Source: Escherichia coli (GTDB lineage Bacteria > Pseudomonadota > Gammaproteobacteria > Enterobacterales > Enterobacteriaceae). Taken from it: 64,000 bases of DNA. The stretch is taken from assembly GCF_003334815.1 (NCBI RefSeq), contig NZ_QOWO01000016.1. One strand, written 5' to 3'. How positions within the stretch are numbered: position 1 is the first letter of the stretch; every line of letters begins with the position of its first letter. Below the pieces are notes generated by a model that was not told where the DNA came from, made no database searches, and was given only the letters and a program-made list of their open reading frames with translations. The translations under genes were made by a program, and so were the position numbers. Below, in pieces: positions 16,372-48,912 of the stretch.

Positions 16372-16815
16372 ATGAATAAAGTTAAAAGTGTTTACAGCCC
16401 GTCCGAAAATGCAATCTACAACGCAGCGCTATATGAAAGTTATATCAAGGAGGGGACATGGCCGCAGGATGGTATTGAAATCAGCGATGAGGATGCTGTC
16501 AGATTTAATGGGGGAAATAAGCCAACAGGAAAAATGCTGGGAATGGTTTCAGGGACCCTTGCATGGGTTGATGAGCCGCCGCTTTCACCAGAACAGAAAA
16601 TATCAGATGCAGAAAACATGAAAGCCACATTTCGTGCAAAAGCTGACAGTGAAATATCCTGGCGTCAGGATGCTGTTGATGCTGGTATCGCAACTGATGA
16701 AGAAACTTCAACTCTCACCCAATGGAAGAAATACCGTGTGCTGCTGATGCGTGTTGATACTTCAACAGCACCCGATATTGAATGGCCTACGCCTCCGGCA
16801 GTCCAGGCCAGATGA
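16372..16815 (+). CDS. tail fibre assembly protein (orientation currently expressed)
   Basis: 147-aa ORF right after tail fibre; C-terminal WPTPP motif shared with the opposite-strand paralogue (WPGLP). Confidence 0.8.
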   Translation: MNKVKSVYSPSENAIYNAALYESYIKEGTWPQDGIEISDEDAVRFNGGNKPTGKMLGMVSGTLAWVDEPPLSPEQKISDAENMKATFRAKADSEISWRQDAVDAGIATDEETSTLTQWKKYRVLLMRVDTSTAPDIEWPTPPAVQAR

Positions 16816-17389
16816 CGTCCGGCGCTGTGCTGGTATCTGTTGCCGTCACCGCGTCAATGTAATCCAGCACGGCGTTAAGTCGGGTTGTTTCTGCCGGCGT
16901 CAACTTCCGTCCGGCCTGTAATTTCAACTGAATCAGACTGATGGAAGCCATTGCAGCATCAATCAGATACTGGCGCTGTGCTTCTGCCGCTTCTACTGCG
17001 GCGCTATGCTGTGCCTCAGTATCCGTCACCCATTTCTCACCATCCCATTTATCGTATGGCGTTAATGGGGCGATAGTGGTTGTATTATCAGGGTAATCAC
17101 CCGGAGCTGTGATTTCTTTGGCGTCTCCCGTTTCGGTGCTATAGACAATTTCACCACGATGGTCTGACACATATTCCCATGATTTTAAATCCATAGAACG
17201 GCAGATAGCATAACCCGCCTTATATGTGCCAGGTTCATCCAGACAGGAATATGCAGGGATACCGACACCAATGGCAAGATATTCATTTGAAGTAGAAATA
17301 TATTCCCGAGTTTTACCATCATAGTTATAGACGGTAATATTCCCCGCCTTCGTGGCAATAAGCTCGCTATTTAATACGGCGTTATCCAT
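16787..17389 (-). CDS. tail fibre assembly protein (alternative, inverted orientation)
   Basis: 200-aa ORF on opposite strand inside the invertible segment, convergent with the + strand assembly gene. Confidence 0.8.
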   Translation of the reverse strand: MDNAVLNSELIATKAGNITVYNYDGKTREYISTSNEYLAIGVGIPAYSCLDEPGTYKAGYAICRSMDLKSWEYVSDHRGEIVYSTETGDAKEITAPGDYPDNTTTIAPLTPYDKWDGEKWVTDTEAQHSAAVEAAEAQRQYLIDAAMASISLIQLKLQAGRKLTPAETTRLNAVLDYIDAVTATDTSTAPDVIWPGLPEA

Positions 17390-17870
17390 TATGCAGCCCT
17401 CACGATATAGTTAAATGCAATATTTCGTGGACGGGTTTCACTCCCGCCAGTATTACCGATACTCCCTCGTGAATGAAGTGTCGGTGATGGGATCAGACTC
17501 CCTCCTGTATTTGTGGCATCAAGTCCCCGTCCTTGTGTGTATGTCTTTTTGAAAATCGTAGCCAGTTCCCATTCATCTTTTGTGTCGTAACCATCATTGG
17601 CAACAACAATATGGCGGTGTTTTTCCAGCATCCCTGTCTGAATGCTCAATAAAACACGTCCTGCATCAATACCGCGCCCGTCATCCCAGCCACGAATAAA
17701 CTCACCACGTAAATCAGGCAATTTATTTGTCGGATAAGCCTTTGCCAGTTCCGGGTATTCTTCAGCAGAAAAAGCCGCACCGTTGCATTTCAGCCAGCCT
17801 GTTGGCGGTGTGGCTGAAGGCCATGGAACAGGCACACCAACAGGTAATGCAGAGCCTTCTCCCAAACCAA
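17389..17870 (-). CDS. alternative tail fibre variable C-terminal segment (promoterless; expressed after inversion)
   Basis: minus-strand ORF reading from the right crossover site; translation contains VGLGE at the junction matching LGLGE of the + strand fibre. Confidence 0.7.
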
Positions 17871-17876
17871 CGTTTA
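17856..17876 (-). repeat. gix/hix-like inversion crossover site (right)
   Basis: reverse complement carries TTGGTTTGGGAGAAG, identical to 15976..15990. Confidence 0.6.
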
Positions 17877-17936
17877 TGAAAATGCAGAAATAACGAGCAA
17901 ATGGCATCATTCCTGCTTTTGTCAGGGAGATCTACT

Positions 17937-18491
17937 ATGCTTATTGGCTATGTACGTGTGTCAACAAATGACCAGAACACAGATCTACAACGTAATGCGC
18001 TGAACTGTGCAGGATGCGAGCTGATTTTTGAAGACAAGATAAGCGGTACAAAGTCCGAAAGGCCGGGACTGAAAAAACTGCTCAGGACATTATCGGCAGG
18101 TGACACTCTGGTTGTCTGGAAGCTGGATCGGCTGGGGCGTAGTATGCGGCATCTGGTCATTCTGGTTGAGGAGTTGCGCGAACGTGGCGTTAATTTTCGC
18201 AGCCTGACGGATGCTATTGATACCAGCACACCGATGGGGCGTTTTTTCTTTCATGTGATGGGTGCCCTGGCTGAAATGGAACGAGAACTGATTGTTGAAC
18301 GAACAAAAGCTGGACTGGAAGCTGCTCGCGCACAGGGACGAATTGGGGGACGTCGTCCCAAACTTACACCAGAACAATGGGCGCAGGCCGGGCGATTAAT
18401 TGCATCAGGCGTTCCTCGCCAGAAGGTGGCGATCATCTATGATGTTGGTGTATCGACACTGTATAAGAAGTTTCCGGTCGGAGATAAATGA
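17937..18491 (+). CDS. DNA invertase, serine recombinase of Gin/Pin/Hin family
   Basis: 184 aa starting MLIGYVRVSTNDQ (catalytic Ser motif); GGGAG RBS; C-terminal HTH; adjacent to invertible segment. Confidence 0.9.
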   Translation: MLIGYVRVSTNDQNTDLQRNALNCAGCELIFEDKISGTKSERPGLKKLLRTLSAGDTLVVWKLDRLGRSMRHLVILVEELRERGVNFRSLTDAIDTSTPMGRFFFHVMGALAEMERELIVERTKAGLEAARAQGRIGGRRPKLTPEQWAQAGRLIASGVPRQKVAIIYDVGVSTLYKKFPVGDK

Positions 18492-18849: not shown

Positions 18850-19104
18850 ATGGGTAAGATTATTCGGTGGATGCTTTTTTTTGTCGGATTATTTTCCGTT
18901 GCATATTCAATATATAAATATCAACAATCTCCGCAGAGTTTATTTTACATAATCGGTGCTATAGGAACACTTTTATCTGCTACATGTGGTTTACTTGAGA
19001 TAAAAAGCAAGAAATCGAATGGCAGTATAACTGCTGGCGACAACTCAAATATCGTTGTCATTAATGGTTCAGAAAACACATCAAAAATAAAAAATAGAGG
19101 GTGA
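18850..19104 (+). CDS. small two-helix membrane protein (84 aa), unknown family - cassette 1 gene A
   Basis: ATG with AGAGG RBS ~7 nt upstream; two hydrophobic helices (res ~5-22, ~31-50) then polar tail containing GDNSNIVVINGSENT; hand-counted GC ~30-35%. Confidence 0.6.
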   Translation: MGKIIRWMLFFVGLFSVAYSIYKYQQSPQSLFYIIGAIGTLLSATCGLLEIKSKKSNGSITAGDNSNIVVINGSENTSKIKNRG

Positions 19105-19106
19105 TT

Positions 19107-20042
19107 ATGTTTGATAAAGAGGTTAACTTAGGAGACAACTCAAACGTAGTAAAAACAGAAGGGAATAACAACACAACAATAATAAATAATTTTGATGAGA
19201 AGTTTATAGGTCACGTTGTAAGATCCATGCTTTATGAAAGTATGCCTTCCTTTCAAGAAGAAGCTAGAAAAAAGATAATTGCGTCAACTGATGAATACAT
19301 TAGAGAGCTAATATCTGAGTTAGTAATTCAAAAAACAGATGCAGATACATTAAACCAAAAACTATCAACGCCTGACGTTCAATACTCTCTTTTTGAATCA
19401 GCTAAATGTTTTGCAAAAAATCCAGAAAGAACAGCAAAATCAACTCTGTTAAATTTAGTTGTAAAAAAAATAAATGAATTGGATGGAGATCATGAAGAGC
19501 TTTCCTCTATCGATCTGGCAATAAACGTCGCTACAAAACTTAGCGTAAAGCAAATAAGGTATATATCTTTAATATACTATATTAAAGATATTGTAAAAAT
19601 ATCACAAGATAGTGCCGGCGCTTATTGCATAATAGATCCTTCAAAAGATACAACAGAAGAAGTTGACGATTTCTTTTTATTCCCAAATGATATAAAAAGG
19701 AACAAGCAGGATGTTTATGATCTTTATATCGATCTATATAACAATCAAATGGATGTTGTATTTAAAGATGAAGAGATTGGCCCAGTTGATTATAGTATGC
19801 TTATAGCATTGGGTTGTATCATTCAACCTGCATTCCCTCAGCGAACATTTGTACAAAATGTAAAGAAAAGAACAGGATTAGATTTAAACGACAGCGAACA
19901 AAAATTAAAGCTATCGACATTCATTGAGAAAATAGAAAAAGCTATAGAGATAGATTCTGTCGATTATATAGTATTAACTACGGTTGGTAGACAAATAGCT
20001 AACGCCTATATATCAACAAGAATGAGATTAGTTAACTTATAA
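19107..20042 (+). CDS. 312-aa soluble protein of unknown family - cassette 1 gene B
   Basis: ATG at 19107 with AGAGGG 6 nt upstream, 2 nt after gene A stop (ORF track start 19101 is an upstream GTG); N-terminus contains GDNSNVVKTEGNNNT; hand-counted GC ~27%; followed by hairpin terminator. Confidence 0.65.
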   Translation: MFDKEVNLGDNSNVVKTEGNNNTTIINNFDEKFIGHVVRSMLYESMPSFQEEARKKIIASTDEYIRELISELVIQKTDADTLNQKLSTPDVQYSLFESAKCFAKNPERTAKSTLLNLVVKKINELDGDHEELSSIDLAINVATKLSVKQIRYISLIYYIKDIVKISQDSAGAYCIIDPSKDTTEEVDDFFLFPNDIKRNKQDVYDLYIDLYNNQMDVVFKDEEIGPVDYSMLIALGCIIQPAFPQRTFVQNVKKRTGLDLNDSEQKLKLSTFIEKIEKAIEIDSVDYIVLTTVGRQIANAYISTRMRLVNL

Positions 20043-20063
20043 ATATCTCATATTTCTTCATCC

Positions 20064-20099
20064 AAGGTGGTGGCTTCATCATCCACCGCCTTCTTTTCT
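20064..20099 (+). terminator. rho-independent terminator of cassette 1
   Basis: AAGGTGGTGG-CTTCATCAT-CCACCGCCTT hairpin followed by CTTTTCT. Confidence 0.55.
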
Positions 20100-20103
20100 G
20101 CTC

Positions 20104-20240
20104 TTAAGAGTAGTGAACAAACCACTCGTCAGCAAACTCCCAAGTATCTTTCAGAGTCTCCTGAACAAAAGCCTTAGCAGAATCCTTATCTGCGGTGTAC
20201 GTAACAGGAAAATCATCGCTATGGTAGCTTTGACGCTCAC
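20104..20240 (-). pseudogene. truncated dinI-like remnant (3' portion only)
   Basis: nucleotide similarity to the 3' end of the intact dinI-like gene at 21881..22129 (GTGAACAAACCACTCGTCAGCA.ACTCCCA.GTATCTTTCAGAG...); no N-terminal part or start codon. Confidence 0.6.
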
Positions 20241-20366
20241 CCCCATACCATAAAATATCAAGAGATTACGACTCATTTCCCCATGACTCTTCACCAACCA
20301 ACAGTTCTATCAACATAAGATGTAAACTCATAAACTAAGCAAGATAAAAAAATTAACAGAATTTTG

Positions 20367-20395
20367 TTGATTTCATGTCTGTGGAGTGTTAACTT
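20367..20395 (+). promoter_or_regulatory. candidate sigma70 promoter for the XRE/ImmA operon
   Basis: TTGATT-17 nt-TAACTT about 50 nt upstream of the XRE start. Confidence 0.3.
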
Positions 20396-20445
20396 AAAAT
20401 GAGACCTGAAGTACTGAAGGTCTTTGACACACTGGAGAAGCAACT

Positions 20446-20805
20446 ATGTTAACGCCGTTTGGTAAGACAGTAAGAAAAATGCGCATAGACTTGGGGCTTA
20501 CGCTTAAAAGCATGGCTGAGGCTATGGGCATGACCTCGTCTTATCTTTCAGCGATCGAAACTGGTAAAAGGGCGGTCACTAAGCCCGTGCTTGATAGCAT
20601 CATTAGCTATTTTAATGCGGATGAAAAACAAAAAGAAAAGCTTATCAGTGCAGCTCGTGACTCTCAGCAGTCAGTAGAGATCAGCTTGTCAGGTAAGAAT
20701 GGCCACGCTCGTGAAGTCGCAATTGCGTTCGCTCGTAGTTTTGATGAATTAAATGAAGAAGACTTCCGTAATTTACGACAGATTTTGAATCGAAAACAGC
20801 AGTAG
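20446..20805 (+). CDS. XRE-family helix-turn-helix transcriptional regulator
   Basis: 119 aa; N-terminal HTH region (LGLTLKSMAEAMGMTSSYLSAIETGKR) typical of XRE/Cro-C1 repressors. Confidence 0.8.
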   Translation: MLTPFGKTVRKMRIDLGLTLKSMAEAMGMTSSYLSAIETGKRAVTKPVLDSIISYFNADEKQKEKLISAARDSQQSVEISLSGKNGHAREVAIAFARSFDELNEEDFRNLRQILNRKQQ

Positions 20806-20813
20806 GAGGCGGC

Positions 20814-21335
20814 TTGAGCGGACAAGATTATCGTGTACCTCCGCAGAATCGTGAATCAATACGTTCTATCGTCACATCTCTGCGGAGCGCATTTGGTATT
20901 ACTGGGCTTAAATTCCCTGTAATGGAGGTAATTGAGTTCGCATTGCCTCAGTTGATCCCGGATTTTGAGTTCCACATTGGTGGCATGAAAGAAATGGGAG
21001 AAACGCATGGTCTTACGTACCCACAGGAACATTTATTGATTCTGCGCGAAGACATTTACGAAGGCGCTTTGAATGGGGTAGGGCGAGATAGGATGACTGC
21101 CGCGCATGAATTGGGTCATCTTCTTATGCACAGGAACATCGCATTTGCTCGTTCTGCCCCAGGGGTAAAAATCCGCCCTTTTGAGAGTAGTGAATGGCAA
21201 GCTAAATGTTTTAGTGGTGAGTTATTAGTGCCGGCTATGCATGTCAGTATTTTAAAAGGTATGACGGCTGAGGATGTTGCTAAGGCATGCGGAGTTTCAT
21301 TAGTGGCAGCGCGTTATCAGCTAGACAGAATGTAA
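20814..21335 (+). CDS. ImmA/IrrE-family zinc metallopeptidase
   Basis: 173 aa; TTG start 4 nt after TAGGAGG; HEXXH motif (AAHELGHLLMH); immediately downstream of XRE gene, the classic HTH-peptidase pair. Confidence 0.8.
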   Translation: MSGQDYRVPPQNRESIRSIVTSLRSAFGITGLKFPVMEVIEFALPQLIPDFEFHIGGMKEMGETHGLTYPQEHLLILREDIYEGALNGVGRDRMTAAHELGHLLMHRNIAFARSAPGVKIRPFESSEWQAKCFSGELLVPAMHVSILKGMTAEDVAKACGVSLVAARYQLDRM

Positions 21336-21338
21336 AAA

Positions 21339-21373
21339 CCCCTTGCTTGGCGCCAACCAGTGCAAGGGGCTTT
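21339..21373 (+). terminator. stem-loop after ImmA-like gene (putative terminator)
   Basis: CCCCTTGC ... GCAAGGGG inverted repeat with large loop, then CTTT. Confidence 0.4.
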
Positions 21374-21488
21374 AGGTGATGAATCCAAGAGGCATCACCA
21401 CCGTGAACAGCTTCGATAGACAGCCTGAAATTAACACCTTCAGGGAAGATGTTCAAGGGAAAAATCTCTCTTGGTAAGGAGGTGTTTT

Positions 21489-21593
21489 ATGAATGGGTTT
21501 GAAATCAATTGCTTCAAAAGCGGCGCCCAAAGGGTTCCGTTGGGTTTTCTGCCGTTACCGCAAGGTGCGTGGGAAATCAAAAAAAGTCCTTGA
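21489..21593 (+). CDS. small ORF (34 aa) with strong ribosome-binding site, unknown function
   Basis: AAGGAGG 6 nt upstream of ATG; translation MNGFEINCFKSGAQRVPLGFLPLPQGAWEIKKSP; terminator 60 nt downstream; not in ORF track (under 60 aa). Confidence 0.35.
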   Translation: MNGFEINCFKSGAQRVPLGFLPLPQGAWEIKKSP

Positions 21594-21654
21594 TGCTCAT
21601 GATTACGGGTACGAGGCGTGGGCATTTTTAGTGCGCTGCTAAGGGTTAGTATTT

Positions 21655-21680
21655 AAGGCACCTGCGGGTGCCTTTTTTGT
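21655..21680 (+). terminator. rho-independent terminator
   Basis: GGCACC-TGCG-GGTGCC hairpin followed by TTTTTT. Confidence 0.65.
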
Positions 21681-21774
21681 ATCCTCTGACCCGATTGGTG
21701 TCTTGCTGAGCCTGATAACTACCAATTTTTGTTATTACTATTCTACTATCGCTCAATCATGATTGGCGGGAGTT

Positions 21775-21877
21775 GAAACCGCAGGCACGTCGTATGCAAG
21801 AACGTGCTGCGGCTGGCTGGTGAACTTCCGATAGTGCGAGTATTGAATGATTTCCAGCCGTTACAGATTTTACGTGC
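21775..21877 (+). repeat. direct repeat copy 2 (~100 bp) at right edge of cargo region
   Basis: near-identical to 18489..18590. Confidence 0.7.
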
Positions 21878-21880
21878 TAA

Positions 21881-22129
21881 TTAGTGAACAAACCACTCGT
21901 CAGCAGACTCCCAGGTATCTTTCAGAGTTTCCTGAACAAAAGTTTTAGCTGAATCTTTATCGGCGGTGCGCGTAACAGAAAGGCCATCGTTGCTGGTGGC
22001 TTTTACGATCACCTCTACATCGTCATAACGCTTACTGATGCGTCGAGTTAATTCTTCCTTTAACGCATCCACAGCACCGTTTGGCATTTTAGTCATTTTC
22101 TCTTTAGCTATGCAGATCTCAATACGCAT
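21881..22129 (-). CDS. DinI-family protein (prophage-encoded)
   Basis: 82 aa [11 protein letters not shown]...[11 protein letters not shown], resembles DinI; two LexA boxes in its upstream region. Confidence 0.85.
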
Positions 22130-22144
22130 AAAAATCCCTCTACA

Positions 22145-22160
22145 CTGTGTTTGTATACAG
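22145..22160. promoter_or_regulatory. LexA (SOS) box 1 upstream of dinI-like gene
   Basis: CTGTGTTTGTATACAG fits CTGT-N8-ACAG. Confidence 0.6.
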
Positions 22161-22172
22161 TGTTATTTTTAA

Positions 22173-22188
22173 CTGTATAAATAAACAG
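22173..22188. promoter_or_regulatory. LexA (SOS) box 2 upstream of dinI-like gene
   Basis: CTGTATAAATAAACAG fits CTGT-N8-ACAG. Confidence 0.6.
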
Positions 22189-22213
22189 TGTCAATGGAAC
22201 AAAGATTGCTGCA

Positions 22214-22329
22214 TGTACAAATGTTCTTTGGCTACAAATACACCTACTGATCATGTTCTGCTATGCTCTGATACCTCCAAAATGTACAATCAGCGGCATG
22301 AATTTTTCTTTGTACATATGATTGTACAT
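22214..22329. repeat. cluster of four TGTACA motifs incl. two TTCTTTG-N0-2-TACA(A/T) direct repeats upstream of prfC
   Basis: TGTACA at 22214, 22283, 22311, 22324. Confidence 0.4.
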
Positions 22330-22348
22330 AATTAAAGAGACAACAATT

Positions 22349-23935
22349 ATGACAAGCCTTTTGGCCGCAGAGGTAGCGAAAAGAAGAACCTTTGCAATTA
22401 TTTCTCACCCGGACGCCGGTAAAACTACCATCACCGAGAAGGTGCTGCTGTTCGGACAGGCCATTCAGACCGCCGGTACAGTAAAAGGCCGTGGCTCTAA
22501 CCAGCACGCTAAGTCGGACTGGATGGAGATGGAAAAGCAGCGTGGGATCTCCATTACCACGTCTGTGATGCAGTTTCCGTATCACGACTGCCTGGTTAAC
22601 CTGCTCGACACCCCGGGGCACGAAGACTTCTCGGAAGATACCTATCGTACCCTGACGGCGGTGGACTGCTGCCTGATGGTTATCGACGCTGCAAAAGGTG
22701 TTGAAGATCGTACCCGCAAGCTGATGGAAGTTACCCGTCTGCGCGACACGCCGATCCTCACCTTTATGAACAAACTTGACCGTGATATCCGCGACCCGAT
22801 GGAGCTGCTCGATGAAGTTGAGAACGAGCTGAAAATCGGCTGTGCACCGATCACCTGGCCGATTGGCTGCGGCAAGCTGTTTAAAGGCGTTTACCACCTT
22901 TATAAAGATGAAACCTATCTCTATCAGAGCGGTAAAGGCCACACCATTCAGGAAGTCCGCATTGTTAAAGGGCTGAATAACCCGGATCTCGACGCTGCGG
23001 TTGGTGAAGATCTGGCGCAGCAGCTGCGTGATGAACTGGAGCTGGTGAAAGGCGCGTCTAACGAGTTCGACAAAGAATTGTTCCTTGCGGGCGAAATCAC
23101 TCCGGTATTCTTCGGTACTGCGCTGGGTAACTTCGGCGTTGATCATATGCTGGATGGCCTGGTGGAGTGGGCACCTGCGCCGATGCCGCGTCAGACTGAT
23201 ACCCGTACTGTAGAAGCGAGCGAAGACAAATTTACCGGCTTCGTATTTAAAATTCAGGCCAACATGGACCCGAAACACCGTGACCGCGTGGCGTTTATGC
23301 GCGTGGTATCCGGTAAATATGAAAAAGGCATGAAGCTGCGCCAGGTGCGCACTGCGAAAGATGTGGTGATCTCCGACGCGCTGACCTTTATGGCGGGCGA
23401 CCGTTCGCACGTTGAAGAAGCGTATCCGGGCGATATCCTCGGCCTGCATAACCACGGCACTATTCAGATCGGCGACACCTTTACCCAGGGTGAGATGATG
23501 AAGTTCACTGGTATTCCGAACTTCGCGCCGGAACTGTTCCGTCGTATCCGCCTGAAAGATCCGCTGAAGCAAAAACAGCTGCTCAAAGGGCTGGTACAGC
23601 TTTCCGAAGAGGGCGCGGTGCAGGTGTTCCGTCCGATCTCCAACAACGACCTGATCGTTGGTGCAGTTGGTGTGCTGCAGTTTGATGTGGTGGTATCGCG
23701 CCTGAAGAGCGAATACAACGTTGAAGCAGTGTATGAGTCAGTCAACGTTGCCACTGCCCGCTGGGTAGAATGTGCGGACGCGAAGAAATTCGAAGAGTTC
23801 AAGCGTAAGAACGAAAGCCAACTGGCGCTTGATGGCGGCGATAACCTCGCTTACATCGCTACCAGCATGGTAAACCTGCGCCTGGCGCAGGAACGTTATC
23901 CGGACGTTCAGTTCCACCAGACCCGCGAGCATTAA
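22349..23935 (+). CDS. prfC: peptide chain release factor 3
   Basis: 528 aa from ATG 22349 ([27 protein letters not shown]...); GTPase motifs; ORF track start 22322 is an upstream in-frame ATG. Confidence 0.95.
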
Positions 23936-24327
23936 TTCTTGCCTCCAGGGCGCGGTAGCCGCTGCGCCCTGTCAATTTCCCTTCCTTATTAGCCGCTTAC
24001 GGAATGTTCTTAAAACATTCACTTTTGCTTATGTTTTAGCTGATATCCCGAGCGGTTTCAAAATTGTGATCTATATTTAACAAAGTAATGACATTTCTGA
24101 CGGCGTTAAATACCGTTCAATGCGTAGATATCAGTATCTAAAGCCGTCGATTGTCATTCTACCGATATTAATAACTGATTCAGAGGCTGTAATGGTCGTT
24201 ATTCATCACCCATCGCTTTTGTGATGGCGGCCATTGACTTCTGTAGAGGGTGAAGTCTCTCCCTATTCAGCAATGCAACCTCGTGTTGCCAGGCTCAAAT
24301 TATGAGCAAACATACAGGAATAAATCG

Positions 24328-24933
24328 ATGACTATGACAAGACTGAAGATTTCGAAAACTCTGCTGGCTGTAATGTTGACCTCTGCCGTCGCGACCGGCT
24401 CTGCCTACGCGGAAAACAACGCGCAGACTACCAATGAAAGCGCAGGGCAAAAAGTCGATAGCTCTATGAATAAAGTCGGTAATTTCATGGATGACAGCGC
24501 CATCACCGCGAAAGTGAAGGCGGCCCTGGTGGATCATGACAACATCAAGAGCACCGATATCTCTGTCAAAACCGATCAAAAAGTCGTGACCCTGAGCGGT
24601 TTCGTTGAAAGCCAGGCTCAGGCCGAAGAGGCAGTGAAAGTGGCCAAAGGCGTTGAAGGCGTGACCTCTGTCAGCGACAAACTGCACGTTCGCGACGCTA
24701 AAGAAGGCTCTGTGAAGGGCTACGCGGGTGACACCGCCACCACCAGTGAAATCAAAGCCAAACTGCTGGCGGACGATATCGTTCCTTCACGTAAAGTGAA
24801 AGTTGAAACCACCGATGGTGTGGTTCAGCTCTCCGGTACCGTAGATTCTCAGGCACAAAGTGACCGTGCTGAAAGTATCGCCAAAGCGGTAGATGGTGTG
24901 AAAAGCGTTAAAAATGATCTGAAAACTAAGTAA
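24328..24933 (+). CDS. osmY: osmotically inducible periplasmic protein OsmY
   Basis: 201 aa starting [28 protein letters not shown] (signal peptide), two BON-like halves. Confidence 0.95.
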
Positions 24934-46714: not shown

Positions 46715-47362
46715 ATGTTACAGGTATACCTAGTCCGCCACGGTGAAACGCAGTGGAACGCCGAGCGACGTATTCAGGGCCAGTCTGACAGCCCGCTGAC
46801 CGCCAAAGGTGAGCAACAGGCGATGCAGGTGGCAACCCGTGCCAAAGAGCTTGGCATTACGCATATTATCAGTAGCGATTTAGGACGCACCCGGCGTACG
46901 GCGGAAATCATCGCCCAGGCCTGCGGCTGTGACATCATCTTTGATTCTCGCCTGCGTGAATTAAACATGGGTGTGCTGGAAAAAAGACATATCGATTCTC
47001 TGACCGAAGAAGAAGAGAACTGGCGTCGGCAGCTGGTCAATGGCACCGTTGACGGGCGTATTCCTGAAGGCGAGTCAATGCAGGAGCTCAGCGATCGCGT
47101 CAATGCGGCACTGGAATCTTGCCGGGACTTACCGCAGGGAAGCCGACCGCTGCTGGTGAGCCATGGTATTGCACTGGGATGTCTGGTGAGTACGATTCTC
47201 GGATTACCAGCATGGGCAGAGCGCCGCTTACGTCTACGTAACTGTTCTATTTCGCGCGTGGATTATCAGGAAAGCCTGTGGCTGGCGTCTGGCTGGGTCG
47301 TTGAAACCGCAGGGGACATCTCGCATCTGGACGCCCCTGCATTAGATGAGCTGCAGCGTTAA
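46715..47362 (+). CDS. gpmB: probable phosphoglycerate mutase GpmB
   Basis: 215 aa MLQVYLVRHGETQWN... histidine phosphatase RHG motif. Confidence 0.95.
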   Translation: MLQVYLVRHGETQWNAERRIQGQSDSPLTAKGEQQAMQVATRAKELGITHIISSDLGRTRRTAEIIAQACGCDIIFDSRLRELNMGVLEKRHIDSLTEEEENWRRQLVNGTVDGRIPEGESMQELSDRVNAALESCRDLPQGSRPLLVSHGIALGCLVSTILGLPAWAERRLRLRNCSISRVDYQESLWLASGWVVETAGDISHLDAPALDELQR

Positions 47363-48228
47363 CGGCGGATAGGAATCAGCAGTTCACAGCGCAGATTAAT
47401 TGGGCGATCTCCCGCTTTGGCGTCTTCTGCCGGGTAGTATCGCTCAATATCCTGACCTTTACGGCGCGTCAGATTGAGCATTGGCATGCACGTTCCGTAT
47501 ACCGTCAGGATAAACTCCTGCACGCCGGTTCCCAGACCTTCATAGGTAAACATCACATATTCGCCGCCCTGCAGCATCACCGGATGCCCTGTCAGTACAT
47601 AGCCATCTGCCTGATCCTGGGCTAACGCGGTGGTATAGAATACCTCTTGTTCGTCGTCTTTATCCTGACTCGGACGCGTTTCATTCAGGCCGTAGAGCAC
47701 CGGCGGAATGGTCGGCGCGTTGCCGAGAAAATCGTGCCAGAACTGATAACGCATTTCATGGCGGAAATCAGAGATTTGCTCCAGCGAACAGGAGTAGCTC
47801 TGGGTAACACCAATCAGCGGCGTATCTTCCAGGGTGACAAATTTGTGCTCTGGCATTGTGAATTCACCCAGACGTAGCGGCGGGCGAATACCAAAGGCGC
47901 TCCATTCAGGAGAACGGCGGTAAAGTGCAGGAGTCTGGGCAAACTGCTTCTTGAATGCGCGGGTAAATGTCTGTTGAGAGTCGAAGCGGTATTGCAGCGC
48001 GATGTCCAGAATCGGACGCGCAGTCAGGCGTAGTGCGACCGCCGATTTCGACAAACGACGAGCACGAATATACGCGCCAATAGCATGGCCAGTGACATCT
48101 TTAAACATTCTCTGTAAGTGCCACTTGGAATAACCTGCTTTCGCCGCTACATTGTCGAGCGACAGGGGCTGATCCAGATGACCTTCCAGCCAGATTAAAA
48201 GGTCGCGAATAATGCCGGCCTGATCCAT
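47359..48228 (-). CDS. rob: AraC-family right origin-binding protein Rob
   Basis: 289 aa, N-terminal AraC HTH. Confidence 0.95.
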   Translation of the reverse strand: MDQAGIIRDLLIWLEGHLDQPLSLDNVAAKAGYSKWHLQRMFKDVTGHAIGAYIRARRLSKSAVALRLTARPILDIALQYRFDSQQTFTRAFKKQFAQTPALYRRSPEWSAFGIRPPLRLGEFTMPEHKFVTLEDTPLIGVTQSYSCSLEQISDFRHEMRYQFWHDFLGNAPTIPPVLYGLNETRPSQDKDDEQEVFYTTALAQDQADGYVLTGHPVMLQGGEYVMFTYEGLGTGVQEFILTVYGTCMPMLNLTRRKGQDIERYYPAEDAKAGDRPINLRCELLIPIRR

Positions 48229-48438
48229 AAAATATCCTCATCCTTTCAACAACGAGCACCTGACATCAGGTAATTGGATAATAGCATTTTTTGCTGTTTT
48301 AGCATTCAGTGTTTTTTTCTTAGTAGAGTATGTTTTAGGGCTTGACGGAAATAAAAGAATTGAGATTTTGTTCTTAATCAATATGTTATTTACCGTGACG
48401 AACTAATTGCTCGTGTAATAGATAAAAATGGTAACAAT

Positions 48439-48912
48439 ATGAAATACAAGCATTTGATCCTGTCTTTAAGCCTGATAATGCTGGGGCCATTGGCTCATGC
48501 AGAAGAGATTGGTTCGGTCGACACCGTATTTAAAATGATCGGCCCGGATCACAAAATTGTTGTGGAAGCCTTTGACGATCCCGATGTGAAAAATGTCACC
48601 TGTTATGTGAGCCGGGCGAAAACCGGTGGTATTAAAGGGGGATTGGGCCTGGCAGAAGATACCTCCGATGCGGCCATTTCTTGTCAGCAAGTCGGGCCGA
48701 TTGAACTGTCGGATCGTATTAAAAACGGCAAAGCTCAGGGCGAGGTAGTATTCAAAAAACGCACGTCCCTGGTCTTTAAGTCGTTACAGGTCGTGCGCTT
48801 TTATGACGCCAAACGCAACGCGCTCGCTTATCTGGCTTACTCCGACAAAGTTGTAGAAGGTTCGCCGAAAAACGCGATTAGCGCGGTTCCTGTCATGCCG
48901 TGGCGGCAATAA
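48439..48912 (+). CDS. creA: CreA protein
   Basis: 157 aa with signal peptide; first gene of cre cluster. Confidence 0.9.

Follow-up and report, generated by a model that had tools for sequence, protein, structure and literature searches.

Two tandem palindromes precede a minus-strand dinI-like gene near the right end of a prophage in the stretch of Escherichia coli DNA analysed here (64 kb in full, referred to below as the window). Their likeness to LexA boxes raises the question of whether both are operators, whether the gene is thereby placed under SOS control and whether such control extends to the prophage itself. A preliminary description had located two boxes of the form CTGT-N8-ACAG at 22145-22188, and this is where we find them: the predicted proximal LexA box, CTGTGTTTGTATACAG, occupies 22145-22160 (20-mer 22143-22162), and the predicted distal box, CTGTATAAATAAACAG, occupies 22173-22188 (20-mer 22171-22190). 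Both are exact 16-bp palindromes (CTGT-N8-ACAG, or CTG-N10-CAG in its shorter form) with AT-rich centres, and they are the only matches to CTGT-N8-ACAG on either strand of the window. Dinucleotide-preserving shuffles gave a chance expectation of 0.59 such matches per window, from which the expected number of pairs lying no more than 50 bp apart was computed as ~3e-4 per window.

The same description had called for scoring with a LexA matrix, and this singled out the same two sites. For the calculation of the heterology index (HI), we assembled 28 E. coli LexA sites into a matrix of our own, since the open papers on the published site list and matrix yielded HI values without sequences. Nine of the 28 sites (recA, two of lexA, sulA, umuDC, three of recN, and dinI) were confirmed in K-12 sequence, where all nine that could be checked, in five K-12 regions plus dinI, were found exactly, upstream of their genes. 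Among the 63,981 positions of the window, which have a median HI of 36.8, the distal 20-mer ranked first (HI 3.27) and the proximal 20-mer second (HI 6.06), and both values are within the span obtained for the training sites by leave-one-out scoring (1.4-12.1). Classical SOS genes have published HI values of 1.8-13 (PMC11228462), with which ours are only roughly comparable in absolute terms, as the rebuilt matrix is not identical to the published one. With a matrix made from the nine verified sites, the two boxes again took ranks 1 and 2 in the window. The third-best match to the LexA matrix lies elsewhere, at 48292-48311 (TGCTGTTTTAGCATTCAGTG, HI about 9-12), in the gap between an ORF on the minus strand (47359-48228) and one on the plus strand (48439-48912); its arms are imperfect (CTGT...TCAG), and we know of no report of this site.

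The gene downstream of the boxes (21881-22129, minus strand) was recovered from the ORF list, by profile searches and in RefSeq, and encodes a protein of 82 aa. It matches the NCBIfam model PRK10597 (DNA damage-inducible protein I) over residues 1-81 with an E value of 3e-20 and PHROG 189 (RecA filament binding protein DinI) with an E value of 4e-31, and it is 44.6% identical to K-12 DinI. As its PRK10597 score of 72.5 bits falls below the equivalog cut-off of 111, the protein is best described as DinI-like rather than as a DinI orthologue, in agreement with the RefSeq label for the same gene, 'DinI-like family protein'. Judging by its family, it should bind RecA filaments and modulate their activity; with a score below the equivalog cut-off, it may act on RecA differently from DinI.

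The claim that the boxes lie in the promoter region of this gene could be made more precise with a promoter scan, which predicted a sigma-70 promoter on the minus strand consisting of a -35 hexamer TTGACA (22189-22194) and a -10 hexamer AAAAAT (22165-22170) separated by an 18-nt spacer. The predicted promoter agrees with the consensus at 10 of 12 positions, and the -10 element at only four of six. The distal box takes up 16 of the 18 spacer nucleotides, while the proximal box starts 4 nt past the -10 hexamer and overlies the predicted transcription start at about 22158. The two boxes, 28 bp apart from centre to centre, end 43 nt and 15 nt, respectively, upstream of the ATG (22129). A Shine-Dalgarno sequence, GAGGG (22136-22140), read from the sequence and conserved in the alignment of related loci, is found 6 nt before the ATG.

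We then asked how far this arrangement is conserved. A scan of IMG/VR with the single DinI-like protein returned only proteins that were 98-100% identical, and more diverged relatives were taken from GenBank phage records. The 67 loci with a full-length homologue represent 27 distinct promoter variants and proteins down to 60% identity. Both boxes are kept in all 27 variants; counted from the ATG, the distal one lies at -59/-60 and the proximal one at -30 to -32. The proximal box has invariant CTG and CAG arms throughout, and those of the distal box are kept in 26 variants, the exception being BP-4795, in which the CAG is changed to CAA. The -35 element is TTGACA or TTGATA, and the -10 element AAAAAT is invariant in 26 of the 27. 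Substitutions are found in the AT-rich centres of the boxes, in the flanks between them and, massively, upstream of the -35 element. In the subgroup formed by VT1-Sakai and BP-4795, the distal box is weaker (CTGG..., HI 9.4-11.1). Promoter spacers have no sequence requirement of their own, and the conservation of the arms is therefore good evidence that the box in the spacer is a protein-binding site. Phage dinI homologues at a greater distance, with 42-68% protein identity (Gifsy-1, mEp237 and three Klebsiella phages), possess a single strong box at -32 to -37, which in most of them overlaps a TATACT -10 element. In the Yersinia phage YeP3, no box is present within 130 nt of dinI, which seems to share its transcript with a gene lying upstream. 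Because these distant homologues and K-12 dinI have one box, and YeP3 none, the tandem two-box layout appears to be specific to the clade of E. coli cassettes located at prophage ends. Remnants of dinI-like genes in two Stx2a-phage loci (L092, 1177-1419, and L093, 1201-1383) are truncated at the 5' end and lack the first 10 codons, and they are uninformative on regulation since the promoter and the LexA box are missing as well.

In most of the related loci that we fetched, whatever the prophage or its integration site, BLAST homology extends over exactly 21775/21776-22194, defining a minus-strand block of ~420 bp (21775-22194) that contains the two-box promoter, the DinI-like gene and a 3' UTR with a hairpin. 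Its limits coincide with the -35 element on one side and the foot of the hairpin on the other, and the sequence upstream of the -35 element is unrelated between prophage contexts. A 261-bp query (22100-22360) matched 1951 of 5426 complete E. coli genomes (~36%), each of which has one to seven copies. Where the flanking gene is not prfC, the match ends at ~22195-22197, just beyond the -35 element. The cassette adjoins yehV in VT1-Sakai and ssrA in EDL933, has a dusA-type integrase gene beside it in ECONIH1, mEp460 and 1720a-02, and borders on prfC in the window as well as in 663 complete E. coli genomes with the same prfC junction. In these otherwise different prophages it follows the tail-fibre genes. 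Since the same block occurs in different prophages and at different integration sites, it is, as far as can be judged from the sequence, a portable, moron-like unit of prophage right ends.

A GC-rich hairpin on the minus strand (21778-21813, about -18.8 kcal/mol in RNA folds), with UUUC directly after it, marks the 3' boundary of the cassette and may serve as a weak terminator or form the 3' end of the transcript. Its U tract was too short for it to be called in the terminator scan, and with a tail of only three U termination at this place is uncertain. On the minus strand 3' of the dinI-like gene, the ORF list contains no notable ORF, only a 36-aa ORF with a TTG start beyond the hairpin, and in related records the cassette gene is followed by convergent genes or pseudogene fragments. 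An Rfam scan of 19000-24500 (E<=1) gave no convincing match to the leader or to the 3' UTR of the cassette, and its three sub-threshold hits were STnc130 at 21646-21758 on the minus strand, CssrB and osmY RNA. The STnc130 match is full-length, scores 30 bits where the gathering score is 55 (E 0.14) and adjoins a strong terminator-like hairpin on the plus strand (21655-21674) just outside the cassette.

The prophage that carries the cassette is of the myovirus type over positions 1 to ~18500, with genes for a portal protein, a major head protein, a tail sheath, a tape measure, a baseplate and a DNA invertase. In the region 16787-18491, the invertase gene (PHROG 125, E 1e-97) lies by oppositely oriented small ORFs after the tail-fibre region, an arrangement that points to an invertible tail-fibre segment like those of Mu/P1-type phages. 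Beyond ~18500 follow, in this order, cargo genes, a truncated second dinI-like copy, a pair of genes for an XRE-type helix-turn-helix (HTH) protein and an ImmA-type protein, and the cassette. One of the cargo genes after the invertase (19101-20042, plus strand) encodes a 313-aa protein of the LPO_1073/Vpar_1526 family (NCBIfam, E 3e-24). The truncated copy (20113-20232, minus strand) corresponds to residues 43-82 of the DinI-like protein at 72.5% identity and has neither an N-terminus nor a promoter, which points to a former right end of a prophage, followed by an insertion or a recombination event at the dinI cassette. The gene pair (20446-21335, plus strand) encodes a 119-aa XRE-type HTH protein followed by a 173-aa ImmA/IrrE-family metallopeptidase with an HELGH motif, and is of the repressor/anti-repressor-protease type. 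Strain 510016 carries a different, lambdoid prophage with an identical right end, comprising the HTH/ImmA pair, the cassette and the prfC junction; its truncated dinI-like copy is annotated as a pseudogene, and a reverse transcriptase gene and a SLATT-domain gene occupy the place corresponding to 19101-20042.

The integrated prophage interrupts prfC within its 5' end and provides the first ~16 codons of that gene, its ribosome-binding site and its upstream region; release factor 3 is therefore expressed from phage signals, back to back with the SOS promoter. Within 22195-22400, these phage-supplied sequences differ from K-12, to which the DNA becomes identical again at about 22392. In the arm of the phage that separates prfC from the dinI promoter, the heptamer TTGTACA occurs four times within 115 bp (22214-22328), twice on each strand, which amounts to half of its copies in the window. 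These copies could be integrase arm-type sites or part of a surrogate prfC promoter.

The context also bears on the suggestion that the boxes link the prophage to the host DNA-damage response, for which we found no support beyond the dinI-like gene. The link is weak because the cassette is self-contained, is located at the extreme right end by prfC and has no antirepressor gene downstream, and the same unit is found in unrelated prophages. Neither an antirepressor gene nor irsA was found downstream of the dinI-like gene among the minus-strand ORFs, and the cassette homology ends at 21775.

For the two palindromes themselves, the motif, the matrix scores, the position on the promoter and the strict conservation lead us to conclude that both are very probably LexA operators of a compact, SOS-regulated promoter of the DinI-like gene. 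The most serious competing view is that only one palindrome works as an operator and that the other is a conserved by-product of the promoter sequence. It can draw on the VT1-Sakai record (AP000400.1), in which gene H0001 is annotated with a 'putative promoter' and one 'putative SOS box' that corresponds to the proximal site only, the spacer site, which reads CTGGTTATCCATACAG there, being left unmarked; the mEp460 record annotates the promoter only. Furthermore, the homologues of Gifsy-1, mEp237 and the Klebsiella phages as well as K-12 dinI manage with one good box, and the distal box is the one that is weakened in the VT1-Sakai/BP-4795 subgroup and has lost its intact right arm in BP-4795. 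However, a by-product of the promoter would hardly keep both distal arms in all variants but one while the centre between them varies, and in the cassette studied here the distal box has the better score, so that we regard a single working operator as rather unlikely.

Other readings dispense with LexA at one or both palindromes. On the plus strand, terminator scanning picked out 22142-22163 with TATTTTT after it, and the late genes of the prophage run on that strand toward prfC; the proximal palindrome might thus act in RNA, as a plus-strand terminator shielding prfC or as a hairpin in the dinI-like leader. Yet only three of the nine pairs in its stem are G-C, the call is explained simply by a LexA palindrome beside the A-run of the -10 element, a much better plus-strand terminator is available at 21655-21674, and cassettes without a host gene opposite them have retained the palindrome too, while a leader starting at ~22158 would omit most of the 5' arm of the hairpin. 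A role in RNA is accordingly highly improbable. We give still less credence to chance matches in AT-rich sequence or to operators of another regulator, such as the XRE-type HTH protein (20446-20805). The region is indeed AT-rich and the HTH gene is only 1.3 kb away, but the chance expectation for so close a pair is minute, as computed above, and the motif conforms to the LexA consensus beyond being merely a palindrome. Moreover, the two-box cassette occurs in many prophages without the HTH/ImmA pair, and the segment between that pair and the cassette (21400-21764) is present in only three complete genomes. We thus retain two LexA operators as the preferred reading. The expectation that the dinI-like gene is under SOS control is well supported by this evidence together with the VT1-Sakai annotation and the Gifsy homologues discussed below.

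With two operators in place, one LexA dimer would sit in the -35/-10 spacer in an undamaged lysogen and a second one 28 bp away over the transcription start, and together they would exclude RNA polymerase; repression from two sites may be tighter than from one. Upon DNA damage, the formation of RecA filaments would lead to self-cleavage of LexA, and the promoter would be freed. The predicted product is a short monocistronic transcript with a leader of ~30 nt, the 249-nt ORF and a 3' UTR of ~105 nt ending at the GC hairpin, and the DinI-like protein translated from it would bind RecA filaments and modulate their activity.

An SOS-controlled phage dinI gene is an already known kind of element, and the proximal box and the promoter had been annotated in VT1-Sakai. 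What appears to be new is the second box in the spacer, which seems to have gone unannotated before, together with the definition of the cassette boundaries. In the full-text literature, we found no LexA-binding, start-site or induction data for this cassette in E. coli; dinI of EDL933 is mentioned in one preprint, which deals with the chromosomal copy, and a study of EHEC treated with ciprofloxacin names one gene dinI without stating whether it is the chromosomal one. We consider the element an ordinary SOS-controlled gene cassette at the end of many E. coli prophages. Annotation and the interpretation of DNA-damage transcriptomes of lysogens benefit from assigning a prophage-borne DinI-like gene to the host SOS regulon, and the extra LexA sites together with additional DinI-like protein could slightly reshape SOS dynamics and prophage induction, including that of Stx phages. 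There is also a small chance that the cassette is more unusual than this, either because the two-operator layout is a clade-specific innovation that makes expression require more damage, or start later, than for single-box dinI of the chromosome or of Gifsy-type phages, or because the 3' UTR gives rise to a regulatory RNA. If the former were true, the phage DinI would be made only in strongly damaged cells, where it would tune RecA filaments and thereby change how often lambdoid or Stx prophages in the same cell are induced. As for the latter, the conserved 105-nt 3' UTR with its hairpin might, by analogy to DinR of Klebsiella, yield an SOS-induced regulatory RNA.

Among known systems, the closest is H0001 of VT1-Sakai, which represents the same cassette (91% DNA identity over 21775-22195, with a protein that is 96% identical), is likewise located at the prophage end and has the promoter and the proximal box in the same positions; it differs in that the prophage is integrated in yehV rather than prfC and that an ORF, H0002, comes after the dinI-like gene. 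This organization also resembles that of the Salmonella prophages Gifsy-1, -2 and -3, whose dinI homologue and operon are induced by DNA damage under LexA control, as was shown genetically (Lemire et al. 2011, PMC3121763). As in the cassette, a LexA box lies on the promoter directly upstream of a phage-borne dinI homologue, and the Gifsy genes, with boxes of HI 3.9-5.3, were upregulated 4.6- to 23-fold by nalidixic acid (PMC8072944). In Gifsy-1, by contrast, there is a single box at -37 that overlaps the -10 element, and the protein is only 42% identical to the one studied here. [quoted passage not shown] In an E. coli expression study, the dinI-like gene c0943 co-varied with sulA, umuD, recN and dinI (PMC2817434).

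The chromosomal dinI gene of K-12 likewise encodes a small DinI protein with the conserved C-terminal motif ..TWESAD.WF and has a LexA-boxed promoter directly upstream; it differs from the cassette in its one good box (ACCTGTATAAATAACCAGTA) at -37 and in the modest protein identity given above. The chromosomal dinI of Salmonella has a second box that is very weak (HI 17.6, PMC8072944). More than one LexA dimer per promoter, as proposed here, is found at lexA (two boxes), recN (three) and the colicin genes (two, overlapping), and several dimers are generally linked with tighter repression. The centre-to-centre distance of 28 bp in the cassette differs from that in lexA (21 bp) and recN (22 and 18 bp), and cooperative binding of the two predicted dimers should therefore not be assumed. 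Compared with the lexA, recN and colicin promoters, a box lying wholly inside the -35/-10 spacer is particular to the cassette. Finally, phage morons are autonomous units of promoter, gene and terminator added to lambdoid genomes, and the classical ones are usually described as active in the repressed prophage. The cassette resembles them in being a discrete unit that is shared by different prophages and has its limits exactly at the -35 element and the 3' hairpin, but, unlike them, it has a putative terminator that is weak and is predicted to be built to stay silent until the SOS response sets in.
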